Below, piece by piece: positions 34,696 to 55,739 of a DNA stretch of 64,000 bases. The notes below the pieces were generated by a model. The model did not search any database. It worked only from the letters and a program-made list of their open reading frames with translations, and had not been told where the DNA came from. Made by a program: the position numbers and the translations under genes. Origin of the DNA: Candidatus Woesebacteria bacterium RBG_16_42_24 (lineage in GTDB: Bacteria; Patescibacteriota; Microgenomatia; UBA8517); NCBI GenBank assembly GCA_001792115.1, contig MGFX01000001.1, positions 240,606 to 304,605 of the forward strand. Reading direction: 5' to 3'. Each line of letters starts with the position of its first letter. The stretch's first letter is position 1.

Positions 34696-35004
34696 ATGCC
34701 GGTAGGAAGATTACGAGTCAAGCTAAAATCCTACGACCACCGTGTCATCGACGAGGCGGCAGGAAAGATATTGGATACGGCCCTGGCGACCGGAGCTAAA
34801 ATAGTTGGCCCCATTCCCCTCCCCACAACACGCACCATAATGAGCGTTAAAGAATCCCCTTTTACCGATAAAGATGCGCAAGAGCATTACGAGATGCTGG
34901 TCCATAAAAGGCTAATCGATATCATCGACCCCAGTGAGCGCACAATTGATTCCCTCTCCAATCTCGACCTCCCCGCAGGTGTCAGTATAGAAATCAAAAT
35001 GTAG
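34696..35004 (+). CDS. rpsJ: 30S ribosomal protein S10
   Basis: 102 aa, S10 family (RLRVKLKSYDHRVIDEA...). Confidence 0.95.
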   Translation: MPVGRLRVKLKSYDHRVIDEAAGKILDTALATGAKIVGPIPLPTTRTIMSVKESPFTDKDAQEHYEMLVHKRLIDIIDPSERTIDSLSNLDLPAGVSIEIKM

Positions 35005-35172
35005 TTTTACTACATTTTCTGACACCGATTGCCCCTCCGAATCGCCCTTCGAGCCGTGTATGAATAATACGGGAAAGGCGAGAAGTAAGATTGTGTGGGG
35101 CAGGAGTTGCGATCGAAATCAAGATGTAGGGCGAAACTCCGTTTGCCCCTCCGAATCGCTCTTCGAGCCGTG
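34973..35172. repeat. Tandem imperfect direct repeat of the rpsJ 3' end plus 30-nt downstream box
   Basis: Copy A is 34973-35058 (gcaggtgtcagtatagaaatcaaaatgtag ... ttgcccctccgaatcgcccttcgagccgtg). Copy B is 35100-35172 (gcaggagttgcgatcgaaatcaagatgtag ... ttgcccctccgaatcgctcttcgagccgtg). A third degenerate copy of the 'atcgaRatYaagatgtag' segment lies at 35809-35826. Confidence 0.7.
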
Positions 35173-35214
35173 GCAGCTTGAATCTTTTCCGCATTTTCTT
35201 CATAGTGAAGAAGT

Positions 35215-35784
35215 ATGAAAAAGAATTCTTCCGATGAACGGGGTAGCGTTCCTGTAATAATCGGAGTAATTATTCTCGCGATAGTCGTATTTGGAATATC
35301 TTATTGGACCTACTTCAAATACTACAGACTCGCCTATACTGACAAAACCTATAATTTTTCACTAATGAATCGCAGAGGGTGGCACGAACTTCCAAAAGAA
35401 GAAGGCGTGTATTATTCATTGGGCACATCCGATGTTCCAGGCGGAAAGGTGGTATCGACCTTCAGGATATCGCCGATTACCCGGAAGGATGATACTAGCA
35501 TTACAGACTCTTCTTCATTCCAAAAAATATGCAGCGACCTAATTAAAGAAATAAACTACACAATCCTGGGCTGGTTTGATGTAAGGTATAGCGGTTTAGA
35601 GGGACATGTTTGTAAAAGTGAGGGAAAGGCTGCCGATATAGATAGAATAAACATTTTCAGTATCTATTTACTTATGAATCCGGGCGGGACATACGATTAT
35701 ATGATCTTCACGACTTATCCAAAAGGAAACCTAGTTGAGGAAGCGAAAGTGAATGAGATGTTGCGTTACTTCCACGCAGATTAA
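35215..35784 (+). CDS. Hypothetical membrane-anchored protein
   Basis: An N-terminal TM helix (VPVIIGVIILAIVVFGISYW) is present. No recognisable motifs. Confidence 0.4.
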   Translation: MKKNSSDERGSVPVIIGVIILAIVVFGISYWTYFKYYRLAYTDKTYNFSLMNRRGWHELPKEEGVYYSLGTSDVPGGKVVSTFRISPITRKDDTSITDSSSFQKICSDLIKEINYTILGWFDVRYSGLEGHVCKSEGKAADIDRINIFSIYLLMNPGGTYDYMIFTTYPKGNLVEEAKVNEMLRYFHAD

Positions 35785-35870
35785 AAGTAGAGTTAATATT
35801 AATTTCCCATCGAGATTAAGATGTAGTTTCTCGCGCCAGCCTCGGAAAAGTTGTATAATCCGTCCCTGTT

Positions 35871-36386
35871 GTGACTAAAGAAGTCGCCATAACCCCTGAG
35901 AGCCAGCGTGAGCTGGTTAGGGCGTTTTTGGCAAAACTTGGAGGGGTTGCCATCGCGACGCCAGATATGAGTAGGGACTACAAATTTGTAGCCGTACTGC
36001 CTGAATTAGACGAATGGACTCGGCTTTTTTCGTATGACGGCGCTTCAGTAAAACCCGACTCTATATGGGAAAAATTACACATTCAGAATGTAAATATTAC
36101 TGACTCGACAATGATTTTTTTACGAATAGATGGCAATGTTGCAAAGACAAAAATTGTCGAGGTAGATACTGCCGGATGGGATGAGACTGATTTACAAAGA
36201 GGACACGTTTTGGGATTTAGAGAAAAACCGTTAGTTTTTGATAGGGCACAAAGGATTCTTAGTCATTTGAAAAAAACGGCCTCAAGATTCTTTGTGGTGG
36301 GGTTTCCCATAGACAATCCCAACGACCATAAGCTTATGGTTCCTATCAGAATGGGTGGGGACGATATAGGCGAAGACGATTTTTAA
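35871..36386 (+). CDS. Hypothetical protein (GTG start, 12 nt after a TATAAT box)
   Basis: ORF with coding-like composition. A TATAAT box lies upstream at 35853-35858. Confidence 0.4.
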   Translation: MTKEVAITPESQRELVRAFLAKLGGVAIATPDMSRDYKFVAVLPELDEWTRLFSYDGASVKPDSIWEKLHIQNVNITDSTMIFLRIDGNVAKTKIVEVDTAGWDETDLQRGHVLGFREKPLVFDRAQRILSHLKKTASRFFVVGFPIDNPNDHKLMVPIRMGGDDIGEDDF

Positions 36387-36654
36387 AAAAGCAAAAACTA
36401 TTTTCCGCCTTCACCTACATTTTGGCGGATGAAATAGAAAGAAGGTCGAAAAAATCGTAATATAATCAAAATGGAGAGAGAACAGCAGATTGTTGAAGCA
36501 AAACGAGTTTTGCGCCGACAACTTAGCCTTCGGGGTAAACCACATACGCGGCATATAAGGATGCACCGTCAGGCCGCCGAAGATAATCATAACAGACTCC
36601 CCGCCCCACGAATTTAAGTGGCAACTTTAGCTTCAAAGGGGTAGAATCTAGAAA

Positions 36655-37095
36655 GTGTTAAAGGTGAATGACAAAGCTCCCGAGTTTAAACTACCCGATC
36701 AAAAGGGCAATTTACACAGCCTTAGCGATTATAAAGGGGGTTGGCTTTTGATTTATTTTTATCCGAAGGATTTTACTCCGGGTTGTACCAAAGAAGCCTG
36801 CTCATTCAGGGATAATTTTTCGCGCCTTAAAGACAAGCTGCAACTAGTTGGCATAAGCGGGGACAGCGTAGAAAGCCACAAAAATTTCAGCGAAAAGTAT
36901 AATTTACCTTTTACAATACTTTCCGATCCGGAAAGAAAAGCGATAAAAAATTACGGCACAAATGGACTGATTTTTGCCAAAAGAACTTCTTTTTTAATAA
37001 ACCCTCAAGGAACAATTGAGAAAATTTACGAAAAAGTCGATCCCACCACCCACGCCGAAGAAATCCTTAAAGACATTTCTTCCCTGACAGCTTAA
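36655..37095 (+). CDS. bcp: Peroxiredoxin, Bcp-type thiol peroxidase
   Basis: The FTPGCTKEAC peroxidatic-cysteine motif is present. 146 aa. Confidence 0.8.
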   Translation: MLKVNDKAPEFKLPDQKGNLHSLSDYKGGWLLIYFYPKDFTPGCTKEACSFRDNFSRLKDKLQLVGISGDSVESHKNFSEKYNLPFTILSDPERKAIKNYGTNGLIFAKRTSFLINPQGTIEKIYEKVDPTTHAEEILKDISSLTA

Positions 37096-37190
37096 ATCAT
37101 CCTTTGAAAATCTGGCAAATTTAACCCCTAGAGAGCCTGCAACGTTAAAATTTTGGTTAATAATTATTTACGTTGTAAAATACGGGCAGA

Positions 37191-37664
37191 GTGACTGATA
37201 TAGACGCTTTAACCAATAAATCAAAAAAGGTAATCGACACAATTGAATATATCGATCTTGCAACCATAACCGAAGATGGAAAGCCCTGGAACTCACCTTT
37301 ATGGTTTGTAAGAGACGATAAGTACAACCTTTATTTTTACTCACCCAAATACACCCAACATTCAGAGAATATAAGAAACAACGGCAATGGATTTGTTGTT
37401 ATTTACGACTCGAGAGCTCCGGAAGGCACAGGATTCGGAGTCTATATGACGGTTGAAGTGAAAGAGCTAAATACGGTTTCCGAGGTCGACGAAGCCCTCA
37501 AATGGGTTTATAAGAAAAAGAAAAAGAAAAGGACACCGCAGGAGTTTTTGGGCAATTCCCCTAGAAGGATTTACAAGGTTACTCCCAAGGAGGCCTGGGT
37601 AAATGACGCTGAATTGAAAAATGGTTTTTACCTAGACTATCGAATTCCAATAAAACTTACATAA
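37191..37664 (+). CDS. Pyridoxamine 5'-phosphate oxidase-like FMN-binding split-barrel protein
   Basis: LATITEDGKPWNSPLWFVRDDKYNLYFYS is typical of the PNPOx-like / general stress protein 26 family. Confidence 0.55.
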   Translation: MTDIDALTNKSKKVIDTIEYIDLATITEDGKPWNSPLWFVRDDKYNLYFYSPKYTQHSENIRNNGNGFVVIYDSRAPEGTGFGVYMTVEVKELNTVSEVDEALKWVYKKKKKKRTPQEFLGNSPRRIYKVTPKEAWVNDAELKNGFYLDYRIPIKLT

Positions 37665-37670
37665 ATAAAT

Positions 37671-38138
37671 ATGGGCAGTGTGAATAAGAAAAAACTAGTA
37701 ACTTTTTTAACCGGGGCTCGTGCAAACACCTATGCGGCTGGTAAGGGAAAGGTAAAACCAGTTTTTCCGGGCTCGACCCAGCTTGAATATAAGGAGGGAG
37801 ACTGGCTATATCGCGACATTTACAATTTGGGAAATAAAATCTTCGTGGGTCTTGAGACAGTCTATTTCAAGGGGAAACCCGTCTGGTCGATGTGCTATTA
37901 CGGAGATTTTAAAAAAATGACGGAAAAAGAAATTGATGAGATTCTGCGGGAAGCCTTAATTAAATACAAAGATAAAGTAAGACTTTGGTACCAGGTGGAG
38001 TGGAAAAACAAAAACTTCAAGTATATTTGCACACCCGACTCCCGAGAAGGCATAGAAGAAGTGTCCGGACTCGAGGAAATTTATAAAGACCGAGAGAAAG
38101 TTTATTATCTTTATTACGCCGGCGGCCTCATAGGCTAA
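37671..38138 (+). CDS. Hypothetical protein, DUF5680-like
   Basis: YAAGKGKVKPVFPGSTQLEYKEGDWLYRD...GKPVWSMCYYG resembles a family that I know only as a domain of unknown function. Confidence 0.35.
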   Translation: MGSVNKKKLVTFLTGARANTYAAGKGKVKPVFPGSTQLEYKEGDWLYRDIYNLGNKIFVGLETVYFKGKPVWSMCYYGDFKKMTEKEIDEILREALIKYKDKVRLWYQVEWKNKNFKYICTPDSREGIEEVSGLEEIYKDREKVYYLYYAGGLIG

Positions 38139-38205
38139 CGGCACATTCCTCGCCCCAGCCTCGGTCATATTTTTATTTGAACACTGGGAAATTCGAAGGC
38201 GGGAA

Positions 38206-38904
38206 GTGTTAAAATCAATTGTGAAATTTGACCCGGTTAAGCACTGGAACGATCGCCATTTCGAACTTCCAAAAAATAGAGATACTTCTTCTTACGCGAA
38301 AGACAAAGAAAAATTTTTTCCTCGAAATTCCCTAGTCTGTGATTTGGGTGGCGGTGTTGGAATAGACTCAAATTACTTTTTAGATAAAGGACATGAAGTC
38401 TACCTTCTGGACATTTCTGACTATGCGCTCAAGGCTGCCCGCAACACTGCGGTTTCAAAAGGCCTTGGCTCCCACCTCATTACCAAAGAGGTAGATTTTT
38501 CGGTAGGTATGTTTCCTCTGGAAGACGGTTTGGTCGATATTGTCTATTCAAGGCTTGCCCTTCATTACTTTCCCCTCGATCGTATGAAAGAAATATTTTC
38601 CGAAATTTATAGAATTTTAAAAAATGGAGGGAAGGCGTTCATAGCCGTAAAGTCGCCCGACGACAAAAGGGAAATGGGAGCCCTCAGAAAAATTGCAAAG
38701 GAAACAAGTCCTGGAATTTTTGACGAAAACGGCCTGATTAAAACTAGATTTACAAAAGTGCAGTACAAAACAGTTCTTAAAAAAGCCGGAGTGTTAAGTT
38801 TTGAAGTGCGAGATTGTGTTGAACATTTTGGTAAAGGTAAAGTTTATGTTAAATCCAAAGCAGAAAAACTTCTATATATAGAAATCATAATAAATAAAGT
38901 TTGA
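38206..38904 (+). CDS. Class I SAM-dependent methyltransferase (small-molecule type)
   Basis: The glycine-rich motif I is VCDLGGGVGID. LDISDYAL follows, with post-I motifs (VDIVYSRLALHY ... LKNGGKAFI). Confidence 0.7.
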   Translation: MLKSIVKFDPVKHWNDRHFELPKNRDTSSYAKDKEKFFPRNSLVCDLGGGVGIDSNYFLDKGHEVYLLDISDYALKAARNTAVSKGLGSHLITKEVDFSVGMFPLEDGLVDIVYSRLALHYFPLDRMKEIFSEIYRILKNGGKAFIAVKSPDDKREMGALRKIAKETSPGIFDENGLIKTRFTKVQYKTVLKKAGVLSFEVRDCVEHFGKGKVYVKSKAEKLLYIEIIINKV

Positions 38905-39125
38905 CTTTCGGGATTTTTAAATTAAGGGGTCCGGCCCATTCATAAATCTCAATTTTAATCCTGAGTGAAATCGAAGGATTATAATCCCGAGCGAACTTGT
39001 TCTGAGTAACCTCGAAGGAGTCGAGGGACTTCTGGCAACTTTAGCCTCGAGAGAGTAGAGTACCTCAAAGTTATTTCATGGACAGGTTGGGCCATTGACA
39101 ATATGACAAATTTATCATAATATAA

Positions 39126-39422
39126 ATGAAGTTAATTTTTGATCCTAGGGCTGAAAAGTTCCTGGATAAAATTAGGGACAAAGAAAGAACAAAGGTATTT
39201 GAATATATTCTTTTATTCGAGGAATACGGATTTGAACTTGATAACAGATACCTTAAGAAGGTAACGAAAAATATTTGGGAGTTAAGGCCTAAAAATATAA
39301 GACTATTTTTTATCAAGAGAGCCACAAATTATTTAATCGTTCACGCAATGTATAAAAAATCCCAGAAAATAACCAAGAAAACGCTAAAATTGTTAGAAAA
39401 AAGAATTAAAAGTTACCTATGA
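39126..39422 (+). CDS. Type II toxin, HigB/RelE superfamily (phage Gp49-like)
   Basis: WELRPKNIRLFF... is characteristic of Gp49/HigB-like toxins. Its 3' end overlaps the downstream HTH gene by 4 nt. Confidence 0.6.
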   Translation: MKLIFDPRAEKFLDKIRDKERTKVFEYILLFEEYGFELDNRYLKKVTKNIWELRPKNIRLFFIKRATNYLIVHAMYKKSQKITKKTLKLLEKRIKSYL

Positions 39423-39730
39423 AAGCAAAAAAAATAGACACATCGAAATTCATTACTTTCCACGAGCTTAGAAGAAAGTGGATGAAAGATCCGGAGTTTG
39501 TAAGGGAGTGGGAAAAGTTAGAGCCCCACTATCAAATAGCAAGACAAATGGTTGGGGCCAGAATCAAAAAGAAAATGTCCCAGGAGGAACTTGCCAAAAA
39601 AATTGGAACCGGGCAGGCGGTAATTTCAAGACTCGAAGGAATGAATGCCAAGCCATCAATTTCACTTTTGAAAAGAGTTGCCGACGCATTGGACACACCA
39701 ATAAAAATAACAATTAACCCCGATCGGTAG
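39419..39730 (+). CDS. XRE-family HTH antitoxin (HigA-like)
   Basis: HTH: MSQEELAKKIGTGQAVISRLE. The C-terminal region is DUF-like (KPSISLLKRVADAL). Confidence 0.65.
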   Translation: MKAKKIDTSKFITFHELRRKWMKDPEFVREWEKLEPHYQIARQMVGARIKKKMSQEELAKKIGTGQAVISRLEGMNAKPSISLLKRVADALDTPIKITINPDR

Positions 39731-39788
39731 GCCATTCTAGATTCTGGCAACTTTAGCTTCAACCTCGGGAAAGTAGTAGAATATCCAA

Positions 39789-47591: not shown

Positions 47592-47805
47592 ATTTGCTAA
47601 TATCTCCGGAAGAAAAGCTGTCAAAGCATTTCTGAAATTTGGCTACGTCCACAGTCACTCCTCCGGCGATCATGCAATTCTTCAAAAGAAAGGCGCACCT
47701 ACCTTATCGATCCCATTACACAAGGAGATAGCTCCGTTTTTATTAAAGTCTCAAATTAAAAGAGCGAATATTAGGCCCGATGATTTCCTGAAAGCTTTAA
47801 AATGA
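47584..47805 (+). CDS. hicA: HicA-family mRNA interferase toxin
   Basis: GRKAVKAFLKFGYVHSHSSGDHAILQKKGAPTLSIPLHKEI is YcfA/HicA-like. It overlaps hicB by 8 nt. Confidence 0.7.
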   Translation: MPRFANISGRKAVKAFLKFGYVHSHSSGDHAILQKKGAPTLSIPLHKEIAPFLLKSQIKRANIRPDDFLKALK

Positions 47806-48114
47806 TCAGTCCGGTAGGTAACCTTTCCCCAATAAATTTGACCCCCTCCGTCGCTAAAGCTTTGAAGAGCTAGGCCATAATCCCAGGTTTAGTTTCAACA
47901 CCATTGTCATTACCCTATAGTCAATTTGCTTTCCTGTGTGAGTCGTGCTATACTTCTTTTCTAGTTGGCAGATTGAAGAAATAGATCTGCTTAATTTTTG
48001 AATTTATTTTGAAGTCGGTAAGATAAAGATACCCCAAATCTTTCGTATTTATTCGTATCTTGTCCCCCACATCACGATTTTCTCATTTAAGCAGTTTTAT
48101 TTCTTTAATACTTT

Positions 48115-49317
48115 ATGTATAACAGGCATAACCATCGCTCAAACGGACACGGAGGGGGAAGAAGGTTCCAAAACAGATTTCCCTCCAGAAGCCAAAAAAC
48201 TGACGCCGAAATCGTGAGAGCGATTCAAGCTATCCAAATTACAGAAGCCCAAGAAGGCGATAGCCCCCAGAGCGCCTATATCCCCAAAAACAGATTTGAA
48301 GATTTTGCAATATCCGGGCAGCTTAAGAAAAACATTTCAGATAAAAGGTATGTAACCCCTACTCCCATTCAGGATCAGGTAATACCGGCAATACTTCAAG
48401 GCTCGGACGTTATAGGAATTGCCAATACAGGAACGGGCAAAACCGCCGCATTCTTAATTCCTTTAATCGAAAAAGTCTGCAATGACAGAAGCCAGAAGGT
48501 ACTTATAATTACTCCCACCCGTGAGCTTGCCTTGCAAATTAACGAAGAACTTTATGGCTTCTCCTATGGTTTGGGAATTAAGAAGGCACTTTGTGTTGGG
48601 GGAATGAATGAAAGAAAGCAAAGATATGAATTGTCATGCATTCCCAATTTTGTAATAGGCACACCCGGGCGCTTAAGGGAATTTATTGAAAGTCGGGCAC
48701 TTCCTATTTCGGAGTTTAACAATATCGTAATTGATGAGGCAGACAGGATGGTAGACATAGGGTTTATCGCCGATATTAAGTATTTTATTTCGTGCCTTCC
48801 CCAAACTCGCCAGTCGCTTTTTTTCTCTGCAACAATTCCCCCTAAGGTAAAGCTGATTCTCGGATCTTTTGTTCGAAACCCGATAACGATTTCGGTAAAG
48901 CTAAAAGAAAGCATAGATAATATTAAGCAGGATATTATTAAGGTTACCGATAGCCAGGGGAAGGTGGACCAGCTAGAGAACATCCTTTCTCAGGAAGGCT
49001 TTAATAAGGTTCTTATTTTTGGACGTACAAAATGGGGAGTTCAGAGACTTTCGAATGAGCTTGTAAGGCGCGGCTTTAAGGCCGGGGCTATTCACGGAAA
49101 CAAAAACCAAAGTCAAAGGCAAAGGGTTTTGGATGACTTTAAAAATAGCAGAATCTCTATTCTTTTGGCTACGGACGTAGCTTCCCGGGGACTCGATATT
49201 GAGGATGTAAGTCACGTAATAAACTACGATTTACCGAATACCTTCGAAGATTATATTCATAGGATTGGAAGAACGGGCAGGGCAAACAAAAAAGGCGTTG
49301 CCTTAACCTTCGTTTAA
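48115..49317 (+). CDS. DEAD-box ATP-dependent RNA helicase
   Basis: The Q-motif region is present. Motif I is ANTGTGKTAAF, motif Ia is PTRELALQ and motif II is DEAD (VIDEADRM). SAT, HRIGRTGRA and an N-terminal Arg/Gly-rich tail are also present. Confidence 0.85.
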   Translation: MYNRHNHRSNGHGGGRRFQNRFPSRSQKTDAEIVRAIQAIQITEAQEGDSPQSAYIPKNRFEDFAISGQLKKNISDKRYVTPTPIQDQVIPAILQGSDVIGIANTGTGKTAAFLIPLIEKVCNDRSQKVLIITPTRELALQINEELYGFSYGLGIKKALCVGGMNERKQRYELSCIPNFVIGTPGRLREFIESRALPISEFNNIVIDEADRMVDIGFIADIKYFISCLPQTRQSLFFSATIPPKVKLILGSFVRNPITISVKLKESIDNIKQDIIKVTDSQGKVDQLENILSQEGFNKVLIFGRTKWGVQRLSNELVRRGFKAGAIHGNKNQSQRQRVLDDFKNSRISILLATDVASRGLDIEDVSHVINYDLPNTFEDYIHRIGRTGRANKKGVALTFV

Positions 49318-49358
49318 AAACCAAAAAATTCGCCCCCGTTCTGGTATATGATACTTAT

Positions 49359-49697
49359 ATGGATGATTCGCTAGTTTGCCCCTCTTGTCATATTGAAGTA
49401 CGTTCAACCGATTATTTTTGCTACAACTGCGGCAAAAATCTTAAGCCCAAGCCTCTTTCTACTTCTTTAACCCAACAAATACTAATTTATTTGGGAAGCG
49501 TATTCCTGCCGCCCTTGGGGCTCGTCTGGGGAGTCCGTTACCTGCGCCAGGAAGATAACACTTCAAAAATTGTGGGGGTAATCTCTATTGTTTTAACCGC
49601 TATTACTTCGGTTTTATTAATAAAATTCACAAATGACCTGATAAAAACAGTAAACGAGCAGGTAAATAGCCAACTTCAAGAGATGCAAGGTTTTTAG
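49359..49697 (+). CDS. Zinc-ribbon plus two-TM protein, hypothetical
   Basis: CPSCH...CYNCG is followed by hydrophobic helices. Confidence 0.35.
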   Translation: MDDSLVCPSCHIEVRSTDYFCYNCGKNLKPKPLSTSLTQQILIYLGSVFLPPLGLVWGVRYLRQEDNTSKIVGVISIVLTAITSVLLIKFTNDLIKTVNEQVNSQLQEMQGF

Positions 49698-49772
49698 GAT
49701 AATCTTAGGACTATAGAAATATGTTCCCACATTGTAATTGTCACCTAATCCTCAGTATAATTTCATTACATT

Positions 49773-50015
49773 ATGAGTGAGCGCGAAGCAGACTTACGTT
49801 GCCCATTTGATGAAGAACGTCCGTGTCTCGATGGGTGCGAACTTCGGCCTTTCGTTTTGAGGATGTTGGCTATATATCATCATCTAGCCCCCCCGGATGA
49901 AGTAAGAAAATCAATTGTAACTTGTCCCTCAAGACGAGGGGACGGCGAGAGAGCAATAACTGGAGGGGTAAACAACCACATCAAAGAAAAATTTTGCCTG
50001 CATTCTAGGCATTAA
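49773..50015 (+). CDS. Hypothetical Cys-rich small protein
   Basis: ORF only; no recognisable motifs. Confidence 0.25.
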   Translation: MSEREADLRCPFDEERPCLDGCELRPFVLRMLAIYHHLAPPDEVRKSIVTCPSRRGDGERAITGGVNNHIKEKFCLHSRH

Positions 50016-50272
50016 AAGAACTTCCTTCTTTGAAGCAAATTTGTGCTATACTTAGATATTGAACTCAGATTCTCCAGTTGCTAAATTGATCGATACTTTC
50101 TTGCAAAGAGGAGGAAGGATAGATAAATATTATCTTCGAGGTACAAACCAATCAAAACGCTCCCTGGTTTATCTACACGGATGGTTTTCGGGGCAGAATA
50201 TCAAATCCGCAATCCTCAAAGCCTTCGGAAAGGTTTAGAATAGCTAGAAGCAACTTAATCTTCTTAACTTGC

Positions 50273-50527
50273 TTATGCAGCTTTTTGGGAGATGTTATGG
50301 GTTCTTCTTTCTTTGGCTTCCGTTTGCCTTCTTACATTGGCCAGTTCTCTCTCGTCTCTTAATTTTTGATCTTTGACAAGCTGTCTATCCACAATTGTCT
50401 GACAATCGGGATCGGGACAGGCAGTAAGCTTGGTAACAATAAGCGAACTACCTATGTATTCTTTATAAGTTTTTACAACAACTCTTACTTTTCCGCACCT
50501 CATACAGACATTTAATCCCGTATTCAT
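50273..50527 (-). CDS. Hypothetical zinc-ribbon protein
   Basis: CMRCG ... CPDPDC. It is on the minus strand, convergent with the flanking genes. Confidence 0.3.
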   Translation of the reverse strand: MNTGLNVCMRCGKVRVVVKTYKEYIGSSLIVTKLTACPDPDCQTIVDRQLVKDQKLRDERELANVRRQTEAKERRTHNISQKAA

Positions 50528-50548
50528 ATAATCTTTTAGAGTGAATTT

Positions 50549-50860
50549 TTACCAGCGCCTAGATTGCCTTTGCCCTCCGCCTCCTCTGTCATATCCCGCG
50601 GAACTTCTTTCCTCTCGCGGCCTTGCTTCATTGACTATGATTTTTCTTCCACCAAAATCCTTACCGGAAAGCTCTTTTATAGCTTTATCGGCGTCTGCGT
50701 CATTTTTATATTCTACAAAACCGAATCCTTTTCCTTGACCGGAATATCTGTCGGTAATGACTGTTGCGCTTGCAACCTCACCAATTTCTGCGAAAAATTG
50801 ACTGAGTTCTGCGTCAGTAGCGGTGTAGGGAAGACCTCCTACGAATAATCTTTTTGCCAT
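50549..50860 (-). CDS. RRM-type glycine-rich RNA-binding protein
   Basis: RNP-2 is LFVGGL and RNP-1 is KGFGFVEY. The C-terminus is RGG-rich. Confidence 0.75.
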   Translation of the reverse strand: MAKRLFVGGLPYTATDAELSQFFAEIGEVASATVITDRYSGQGKGFGFVEYKNDADADKAIKELSGKDFGGRKIIVNEARPREERSSAGYDRGGGGQRQSRRW

Positions 50861-50992
50861 TTATTATCTCACCACCTTTGTGTACTTACGTGAGGATTAT
50901 TCCATCTAAGAAGCTTTAAACCGCTTGGTAGAAGTAATCGTAACCTAAGTAACTAATGATACTTTATCATAAAAAATGTAAAATAGCAAAGT

Positions 50993-51664
50993 ATGTATAA
51001 ACTTTCTCCTTCCGATTTCAAATACCTTTACCAGGACTGCAAGCACTGCTACTACCAAAAGGTGAAAAAGGGAATTACCCTGCCCTCAATCGGAATGCCC
51101 GGAGTTTTTTCCAAAATGAATTCACTTCTACAATCGGCGATTATGGGAATGAATCTAAAGGATGTAAATTCCGAACTCCCATCAGGAATAATCGAAGTTA
51201 AGGAAGGATTTCTGCGATCCGCCCCAATTCCGCCCTCCAAAAAGTCCTTTATAAGTGGGCGATTCGACATTACTTCGAAACTTGAGGGCGGCTCAATTGC
51301 CGTAATTGACTTTAAAATTACCGACCCGACAGAGGAAAAAATCCAAAAATACTCAAGTCAGCTCCATGCCTATAAATTCTCCCTCGAAAACCCGTCTTAT
51401 GGTGAGGCCAAAAAGGTGGCCAAGATGGGAATTATAGCCATAAACCCGGAAGACATTTCTTTTCCGGGGGATAAAGTAATTTTTAAGGCAACCCCGACCT
51501 GGTTTGAAATAAAGGAAGATATGGATAGTTTTTATAATTTCATATCCGAAGTAACAGAGCTTTTGGAAGGACCCACCCCTAAAGAAAATCCTGATTGTGC
51601 GTGGTGCAAATACCGCCTCTGTTTCGCCCACCCCGAAGCCACACAGGATGAGATTCCTTTTTGA
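50993..51664 (+). CDS. Cas4/RecB-family PD-(D/E)xK nuclease with Fe-S cysteines (stand-alone)
   Basis: A GRxD-like motif (SGRFDIT), a D/ExK motif (AVIDFKIT) and QxxxY (QLHAYKF) are present. Cys motifs are CKHC at the N-terminus and CAWCKYRLC at the C-terminus. Confidence 0.55.
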   Translation: MYKLSPSDFKYLYQDCKHCYYQKVKKGITLPSIGMPGVFSKMNSLLQSAIMGMNLKDVNSELPSGIIEVKEGFLRSAPIPPSKKSFISGRFDITSKLEGGSIAVIDFKITDPTEEKIQKYSSQLHAYKFSLENPSYGEAKKVAKMGIIAINPEDISFPGDKVIFKATPTWFEIKEDMDSFYNFISEVTELLEGPTPKENPDCAWCKYRLCFAHPEATQDEIPF

Positions 51665-51679
51665 GTTCTCCGAACCCAA

Positions 51680-51708
51680 TTGACGTCTGAAGCTAAATGA
51701 TTTATAAT
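51680..51708 (+). promoter_or_regulatory. Sigma70-type promoter (TTGACG-N17-TATAAT) restoring transcription into rplC and the S10/spc genes downstream of the island
   Basis: -35 at 51680-51685 and -10 at 51703-51708. Confidence 0.6.
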
Positions 51709-51808
51709 CTTGGCATCAATGGAGGTGACTAGCCAGAAATAACCTCTACATAAGAAGTAGGATGTGCCAGTTGAGGGCGCCTCCGGCGCCTTTTTTTGTG
51801 AGAAAAAG

Positions 51809-52702
51809 ATGATCAATGCTATTTTAGCCTCAAAAGGGAAAATGGGAGCGGCCTTCGTCAAAGGCCGAAGGTTTGCTGTGACAAAAGTTCTGGCCGGCCC
51901 GTGCGTGGTCATCCAGGTTAAAAAAATGGAAAAAGACGGATATTGGGCGGTCCAGCTTGGCTTCGGAGAAAGAAGAATTAAGAATATTAGTAAGGCCATG
52001 CAAGGACACCTCAAGTTAAGTCAAAACTCAAAAGTCAAAACTCAAAGCTCTAATCTCAAATCTCAAAACACCCTCCCCAGATTTATAAGAGAGGTAAGGC
52101 TAGAAGAAGAACCAAAAATGAATGTTGGAGATGAAGTTAAAGCCTCCGACGTTTTTAATGTCGGAGATATTGTTAGTGTTTACGGCATTTCCAAGGGTAA
52201 GGGTTTTCAGGGAGTGGTAAAGCGCTGGGGATTTGCGGGGGGTCCCAGAACCCACGGACAATCTGACCGTGAGCGAGCACCGGGCTCAATCGGCCAAGGA
52301 ACAACTCCGGGCAGGGTTTATAAAGGTAAACATATGGCAGGAAGAATGGGAGGGGATAGTGTTACTGTTAAAAATTTGCAAGTGGTTTCTATTGAGCCTG
52401 AAACAGGACTGATTGAGATTTCGGGTCCTGTACCGGGGGATACGGGAGGCCTTCTTAAGATAACGAGAACAGCTAAGGGCGAGCTTGAAGGAATTCAGGA
52501 AGTAGCGGCCCAGGTTGTAGAAGGAGAGCCCTCCTCCGCCGAGGCTACGGAGGACAAGGTCCCCGCCGACGCTGGCCTGCCTGCCGGCAAGGCAGGAGCT
52601 GTGGCGGGCAAGCCCGCCGACGAGGCTCCAACCGAAAGCGGCGCACCCGCCGCAACTAAAGAGGTCCCAGCTGCTAAAGGAGGTCAAAGTGACAAAAGCT
52701 AA
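51809..52702 (+). CDS. rplC: 50S ribosomal protein L3 with an internal low-complexity insertion and a long Ala/Pro/Glu-rich C-terminal extension (ORF track starts at 51764)
   Basis: MINAILASKGKMGAAFVKG... is L3-like. GKGFQGVVKRWGF and HGQSDRERAPGSIGQ are L3 motifs. Confidence 0.9.
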   Translation: MINAILASKGKMGAAFVKGRRFAVTKVLAGPCVVIQVKKMEKDGYWAVQLGFGERRIKNISKAMQGHLKLSQNSKVKTQSSNLKSQNTLPRFIREVRLEEEPKMNVGDEVKASDVFNVGDIVSVYGISKGKGFQGVVKRWGFAGGPRTHGQSDRERAPGSIGQGTTPGRVYKGKHMAGRMGGDSVTVKNLQVVSIEPETGLIEISGPVPGDTGGLLKITRTAKGELEGIQEVAAQVVEGEPSSAEATEDKVPADAGLPAGKAGAVAGKPADEAPTESGAPAATKEVPAAKGGQSDKS

Positions 52703-54672: not shown

Positions 54673-55086
54673 ATGGAAATAATTGCGACACAGAAATATT
54701 TAATCACTTCTCCCAAGAAATTGAGGGAAGTGGCGGCTGTTGCCAAAAAGCTTTCGCCAATACGGGCAATTGAGATCTTGCCTTTTATCGGAAAACGCGC
54801 CGCAACTCCCCTCTTAAAGGTGATAAAGAATGCAATCGCCAGTGCCAAGGCGAAGGGTAGCAGCGAGGGGGAACTTGCTTTTAAAGAAATTCAAATAGGC
54901 GAAGGCCCGAGACTCAAAAGGTTCAGGGCCGGAGCCCATGGCCGGGCCAAGCCTTATAAGAGGCGGATGAGCCACATCCGAGTTGTGCTAACAACTCAGA
55001 ATTCCCAAATTCCAGTTTCCAAATCCCAAATAAATTCAAATGCCCAAAATTCTAGTGCGGAAAAGAAAAAGGAGGGGAAGAAATAA
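54673..55086 (+). CDS. rplV: 50S ribosomal protein L22 with a heptamer-repeat-encoded C-terminal tail
   Basis: L22 core (ATQKYLITSPKKLREVAAVAKK...) plus the tail NSQIPVSKSQINSNAQNSSAEKKKEGKK. Confidence 0.9.
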   Translation: MEIIATQKYLITSPKKLREVAAVAKKLSPIRAIEILPFIGKRAATPLLKVIKNAIASAKAKGSSEGELAFKEIQIGEGPRLKRFRAGAHGRAKPYKRRMSHIRVVLTTQNSQIPVSKSQINSNAQNSSAEKKKEGKK

Positions 55087-55088
55087 CC

Positions 55089-55739
55089 CGTGGGACAAAA
55101 AATTAATCCGGTGGGAATGAGGATTGGGAGCTTTCTGCCTTGGAAGTCGCGTTGGTTTGTCGAAGGTGAAAAGTACAAAGAGTTTTTGTGGAAGACGTCA
55201 GAATTAGATATGCACTTATGGATAAGCTTAAACTCGCAGGAATAACGTCTGTTGAAATTGAGAGGCTTCCCAAATCCATGGTTCTTAATTTAACCGTATC
55301 GCGCCCCGGAGTTGTAATAGGTAGAGGTGGGTCCGGAATTGAGGAGGTTAAAAAATACGTTTTGGGAATTATAAAGAATGTTCGAGGCGAACTTCCCAAA
55401 GACTTGAAGATCGATTTAAAGGTTACCGAAGTAAAAAATCCTGAAATTTCGGCACATTTAGTTGCTTCAAGAATTGCTGGGGAGCTCGAGCGAAGGATGC
55501 CCCACAGGCGAGTGGTATCTAAAGCGACCGAAAGAGTCATGGCGGGAGGCGCCTTGGGAGTGAAGGTCGTCTTGGGTGGAAGAATCGGCGGAGCTGAAAT
55601 TTCGAGAGTCGAAAAATTCCAGATGGGTTCGGTTCCGACGCAAACATTAAGAGAAACAATAGATTATGCTCAAATACCGGCACTATTAAAAAGAGGATAC
55701 GTCGGAGTAAAAGTCTGGATCCACAGGAAGGAAGAGTAA
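55089..55739 (+). CDS. rpsC: 30S ribosomal protein S3; the 5' end reads in three frame segments (apparent +1 / -1 frameshifts)
   Basis: From GTG 55089, frame A gives VGQKINPVGMRIGSFLP, the S3 KH-domain N-terminus. After the T3 run at 55139-55141 the S3-like sequence WKSRWFVEGEKYKEFL continues only in the +1 frame. After the T5 run at 55183-55187 it returns to frame A (VEDVRIRYALMDKL... to the stop at 55739). Confidence 0.8.

Follow-up and report, generated by a model that had tools for sequence, protein, structure and literature searches.

The rpsC gene for ribosomal protein S3 (uS3) is broken in the window, the whole 64,000-nt stretch of DNA analysed here, by a single uncompensated 1-nt deletion. 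We consider it about 85% probable that the break is a technical error private to this assembly. The lesion was located to the base, was absent from every other assembly and was accompanied by no other private difference in 64 kb; the technical cause is what we infer from them. The organism's rpsC would then be an ordinary intact gene of 216 codons. The window sequence would have lost the A of codon 34 (ATG), immediately 3' of T5-G, so that the gene appears as ORFs of 51 and 183 codons. The base was probably lost in assembly, consensus calling, gap closure or curation, and its loss would not be a feature of the living population.

As shown by three-frame translation of positions 55086 to 55260, the N-terminal 33 codons of rpsC and the rest of S3 were located in different frames (Table 1). 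The preliminary description had stated that rpsC is not one ORF in the window, and the frame break near 55188 was found to be real. It had also proposed two compensating +1/−1 shifts at T runs, but the switch directly 3' of the T5 run was the sole frame break in rpsC. No shift occurred at 55139–55141 ('ccttt'), where the sequence reads CTGCCTTGG and the S3 N-terminal pieces VGQKINPVGMRIGSFLP and WKSRWFVEGEKYKEFL are contiguous in one frame. The first shift was only apparent, because the frame had been opened at 55089, one base early. The TGA at 55167, previously placed in the N-terminal frame, is read in the S3-body frame and forms the upstream bound of the overlap (55170–55242) in which a −1 shift could be productive. 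The frame change proposed after the T run at 55183–55187 does take place there, but the run is T5 in the window and in all 12 sibling contigs, and what differs is the missing A.

The uS3 gene is a single uninterrupted ORF of about 216 codons, and the window copy is split at 55188/55189. The conserved N-terminal segment (GQKxxPxGxRxG...WxSxWF) was present in one frame at 55090–55188, and the 183-aa ORF contained PF07650 (KH_2, 8.1e-13) and PF00189 (Ribosomal_S3_C, 1.1e-26), the same domains as in the intact public protein P0121. The order rplV-rpsC-rplP of the S10/spc cluster was found from the ORFs and the Pfam labels of identical sibling genes, the + strand cluster in the window comprising L23, L2, S19, L22, S3, L16, L29, S17, L14, L24, L5 and onward.

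Table 1. Features of rpsC in the window and private frame-breaking indels in sibling assemblies. Positions are those of the window unless a sibling locus (L) is named.
Feature	Position	Strand	Remarks
Shine-Dalgarno core AGGAGG	55070–55075	+	14 nt 5' of the rpsC start codon; read from the sequence
N-terminal ORF	55090–55245	+	GTG start at 55090, 51 aa, stop TAA at 55243–55245
rpsC codons 1–33	55090–55188	+	GTG start, VGQKINPVGMRIGSFLPWKSRWFVEGEKYKEFL, single unbroken frame; equal to residues 1–33 of P0121
TGA	55167–55169	+	Shares the S3-body frame (position mod 3 = 0); the N-terminal frame has mod 3 = 1
T5 run	55183–55187	+	Same length in the window and in 12 of 12 sibling contigs (L001–L012); not the lesion
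Deletion site	55188–55189	+	A absent between G55188 and T55189, base 1 of codon 34 (ATG, Met34)
S3 body ORF	55188–55739	+	183 aa, −1 frame, begins (V)EDVRIRYALMDKLKLAG...
rpsC remainder	55189–55739	+	Last two bases of codon 34, codons 35–216 and stop TAA at 55737–55739; KH_2 and Ribosomal_S3_C
Premature TAA	55243–55245	+	Closes the N-terminal frame after 18 out-of-frame codons (WKTSELDMHLWISLNSQE)
Sibling indel	L001 3736 (window 48818)		Loss of 1 nt from a T run; DEAD helicase gene split
Sibling indel	L033		5-nt deletion
Sibling indel	L007		8-nt duplication
Sibling indel	L025		2-nt deletion
Sibling indel	L002 4111 (window 52602–52611)		10-nt deletion, fuses L3 and L4

Sibling contigs were used to determine the state of the site outside this assembly. 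All 12 independent contigs read GAGTTTTTG-A-TGGAAGAC (translated E F L M E D) where the window lacks the A. The A-bearing sequence GAGTTTTTGATGGAAGAC (TTTTTG-A-TGG) was common to the 12 contigs at the site; the two alleles are TTTTTGATGG with the A and TTTTTGTGG without it. These contigs, 99.6–100% identical to the window, belong to Candidatus Woesebacteria RBG_19FT_COMBO_42_9 and relatives and were derived from 11 assemblies of several projects: NCBI GCA_001792155.1 and GCA_001793175.1, and nine ENA assemblies, of which three are named ANAN16-1 scaffolds and six are others. In 8 of the 12 the missing A was the only gap relative to the window over 4–15 kb. The fact that the A is missing in the window and present in the contigs of all sibling assemblies indicates that an error in one sequence is most likely.

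Insertion of an A after 55188 restored exactly the 216-aa P0121 (OGM17743.1 / OGM66831.1), the 30S ribosomal protein S3 of Candidatus Woesebacteria bacterium RBG_19FT_COMBO_42_9, which belongs to the cluster of P0001 and is on record in at least 20 contigs. The two genes occupy the same locus between rplV (L22) and rplP (L16), carry the same KH_2 and S3_C domains and, once the A is added, are identical over 216 residues, whereas the window copy as it stands reads as two ORFs. A protein search with the repaired S3 returned thousands of full-length S3 proteins, the named best matches being from Candidatus Woesebacteria (CPR/Patescibacteria); they included P0001, intact with 216 aa and 99% identity, and P0015 with 183 aa, and the DNA encoding each of these two carries the A. 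Of the 120 best homologues, 119 had an uninterrupted S3 ORF, as did every one of the 12 sibling contigs.

Comparison with the S3 genes of close relatives, which the preliminary description had named as a check, thus gave a single clean ORF, but by an inserted A and not by altered T runs. The repair predicted there was T2 at 55139–55141 and T6 at 55183–55188. All 12 relatives have T5 followed by GATGG (KEFL-M-EDV); a T6 repair was rejected, as it would give KEFF-VEDV where the siblings, with T5 and the A, have KEFL-MEDV. The earlier suggestion of a sequencing error is the best supported reading, although with one lesion instead of two and with a missing A beside T5 instead of a miscounted T run.

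The deleted allele was also sought in public collections. None of its possible gene-caller products (51 aa with M or V, 42 aa, 183 aa with V, 173 aa) was found among about 15 billion public proteins. Exact-pattern scans accepting both alleles, with a syntax validated on the window and the sibling loci, gave no match in the GTDB representative genomes or the JGI metagenome contigs, where this population is absent or masked; sibling DNA was therefore gathered by exact-protein look-ups.

To place the deletion against its surroundings, 44 sibling loci (494 kb aligned) were piled up onto the whole 64-kb window. Sibling contigs beyond rpsC were anchored by exact look-ups of the reverse transcriptase, the DEAD helicase, RNase J and RpoC. 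The window rpoB product read from its GTG start had no exact public protein match, likely because the gene is called from a later start in public records (1124 aa), and RpoC and RNase J were used as anchors instead. Every position was covered at a depth of at least 1, and 61,664 of the 64,000 at a depth of at least 2. Each sibling contig covers part of the window at most, because assembly stops in the tuf region, in the L3-tail repeat or at one of the short TTCCAAAT-like repeats. At least one sibling differed from the window at 231 positions, and several siblings were 100.0% identical to it across 10–20 kb. Differences private to the window amounted to 0 substitutions, 0 insertions and 1 deletion, the missing A. 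In the sibling assemblies, about five private frame-breaking indels were detected in 494 kb (Table 1) outside a hypervariable GC-rich repeat in the L3 tail, which makes one in 64 kb the expected background.

The break shares several properties with indel errors in draft and metagenome-assembled genomes: it is confined to one assembly, breaks the frame, lies beside a homopolymer and is set in otherwise identical sequence. It differs from the typical case in that the window lost the A after T5-G and not a T of the run. The deletion is thus outside a homopolymer, the classic context of such errors, though it adjoins one. For the Rifle aquifer sibling assemblies, Illumina HiSeq reads were assembled by IDBA-UD, and the scaffolds were then repaired and curated by hand (PMC5079060). 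Across the sibling projects, reads were Illumina and assembly was by IDBA-UD or in MEGAHIT style (PMC5079060). Single-base indels are uncommon in such data, which also counts against an error.

Two copies, 89% identical, of a 35-nt TTCCAAAT-like repeat were located at 55000–55034 in the 3' tail of rplV and at 57013–57047 in the rplN-rplX spacer, and related words also occurred near 63586–63600. From the end of the first copy it is about 55 nt to the rpsC start and about 150 nt to the deletion. At these repeats, N-gaps or breaks occur in the sibling scaffolds L002, L003 and L006. L3 is unusually long (312 aa), with a GC-rich and repetitive C-terminal tail; the region 52574–52626 in this tail was hypervariable across assemblies, showing deletions of 21, 10 and 2 nt and, in L001, an alternative sequence, and many sibling contigs end there. 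This may reflect either a problem in assembly or a true polymorphism in length. The broken genes of sibling assemblies also included EF-Tu, called as three pieces in L037 (15785–16984).

It is unlikely that the deletion is a real and very recent mutation, carried by a minor variant or a dying lineage in whose cells rpsC is a nascent pseudogene. The base is missing from the sequence as given, a 1-base deletion outside a homopolymer is not the most typical short-read error, and metagenome assemblers can fix minor alleles. However, S3 is universal and essential, and no part of it is more conserved than the segment lost here. A lineage of this kind would have to be undiverged except for one lethal-looking lesion, since no other private change was found in 64 kb; the A is present in all 12 other contigs, and no second rpsC copy was seen within the window. 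Nor did the gene look like an established pseudogene: the lesion was shared by 0 of 12 siblings, and neither the gene nor the 64 kb showed further degeneration. A genuine deletion would give a rare view of an essential ribosomal protein gene in the act of being inactivated; nothing here points in that direction.

A real deletion might be tolerated if the living Woesebacteria lineage obtained functional S3 by low-level −1 slippage (A_AAG/U_UUG) or as a two-piece protein, a combination to which we assign a very small probability. It would amount to an essential ribosomal gene surviving through a "savior"-type recoding event. Its recoding part, taken by itself as a −1 ribosomal slip or the addition of a U by RNA polymerase in T5, seems less probable still. 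On paper a −1 slip anywhere in 55170–55242 restores a 216-residue protein, and the Z_ZZN tetramers U_UUG and A_AAG are present in the correct frame. By the first route tRNA-Leu would slip from UUG (55186–88) back onto UUU, followed by GUG, to give KEFL-V-EDV with Val where relatives carry Ile or Met; by the second, tRNA-Lys would slip at A_AAG (55170–73). Like the programmed −1 sites of dnaX (A_AAA_AAG), IS3/IS911 and HIV-1 (U_UUU_UUA), the window has a U-rich run ending in UUG and ORFs in a −1 relation. Unlike them, it has G at position 1 of the heptamer, no downstream structure and an arrangement that is not conserved.

The two-frame arrangement was absent from all relatives, near and distant, in which the same U-rich context lies in an unbroken ORF; it follows that nothing has been selected or has evolved to shift there. 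G_UUU_UUG does not conform to the X_XXZ_ZZN heptamer. The tetramer U_UUG is also weak in Escherichia coli, where it is among the weakest and reaches 1.8–3.6x of a 0.064% background even with the strong IS3 pseudoknot (PMC4066793). No stimulatory hairpin or pseudoknot, expected 5–9 nt after the motif at a programmed site, was found downstream of U_UUG, and A_AAG at 55170–55173 was likewise without a stimulator. The 80 nt 3' of the junction had a minimum free energy of −7.5 kcal/mol, whereas the 200 shuffles averaged −12.5 kcal/mol (z = +1.92) and every one of them folded at least as well; Rfam gave no match in the region downstream of the junction. Useful transcriptional slippage is known from runs of about 9 or more, and T5 is far too short for a rescue of this kind. 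A ribosomal protein required in stoichiometric amounts could not be supplied at an efficiency below 1%. The programmed frameshifting considered in the preliminary description was thus left without a shared arrangement, a stimulatory RNA structure or a canonical heptamer.

The N-terminus that a shorter S3 would lose was compared among relatives. In 36 relatives, 12 of residues 1–33 were invariant (K4, P7, G9, R11, G13, W18, K19, S20, W22, F23, K30 and L33) and 5 were nearly invariant, and all 36 read through the junction in one ORF. This conservation argues that the lost N-terminus is under strong constraint. It bears on the suggestion that GTG 55188 serves as the start codon of a 183-aa S3 lacking residues 1–33, possibly complemented by a separate 51-aa peptide. 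GTG is a legal start codon, and the 183-aa ORF retains KH_2 and Ribosomal_S3_C. Absence of a Shine-Dalgarno core before this GTG is not disqualifying: we rejected it as an argument against re-initiation, because just 9 of the 35 confidently placed genes in the window have such a core (GGAG, GAGG or AGGA within 20 nt 5' of the start). Seven of these nine genes, rpsC included, are in the ribosomal-protein cluster.

A start at GTG 55188 would discard the 12 invariant positions. Between the N-terminal ORF and the putative restart there is a 55-nt overlap, in an arrangement that bears no mark of selection, and the allele has been seen once only. No naturally truncated S3 was found among the 120 best relatives. 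The lone 183-aa entry, P0015, was rejected as a truncated allele: at L002 6586–6716 a run of N reaches right up to the GTG start, which left the caller to begin at Met34 although the DNA is intact, and this public "short S3" is a gene-calling artefact of a scaffold gap. We therefore regard a truncated or split S3 as exceedingly improbable. No relative shares the arrangement, and the pseudogene or N-terminally truncated S3 proposed earlier is unsupported.

The window further contained an accessory island. S10 is normally contiguous with L3; here rpsJ (S10, 34696–35004) and rplC (L3, 51764–52702) are parted by about 16.7 kb (35005–51763). According to the Pfam labels of identical sibling genes, the island encodes a peroxiredoxin, a PNPOx protein, a methyltransferase, a Gp49/HTH toxin-antitoxin pair, two DUF3800 proteins, a MazG-like protein, an N6_N4 methyltransferase with a HinfI-type endonuclease, an HTH-RT pair, HicAB, a DEAD helicase, an RRM protein and a PD-(D/E)XK/Cas4-like protein. 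In the HTH-RT pair (45687–47004, + strand), the HTH gene (101 aa) overlaps that for a 341-aa reverse transcriptase. Best PADLOC matches were HTH_VI (7.4e-24) and RT_VI (1.4e-77), which mark it by sequence as the predicted gene pair of a retron-like defence system of type VI, known here from its protein-coding genes and located in a Woesebacteria (CPR) genome. The corresponding stretch of L003, an NCBI sibling, is interrupted and lacks a called RT gene. The only Rfam match at gathering threshold in the window was a DUF3800-IX RNA at 40447–40515 on the − strand (50.3 bits, E = 7e-8), located between the two DUF3800 genes (39789–40415 and 41581–42216).

Recognition of the break is of value mainly for quality control, since an rpsC that is frameshifted in a CPR genome may be taken for gene loss, for a pseudogene or for recoding, and S3 serves as a standard marker in phylogeny and in estimates of completeness. 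In the Woesebacteria population studied here, rpsC is intact, with the break confined to one assembly.
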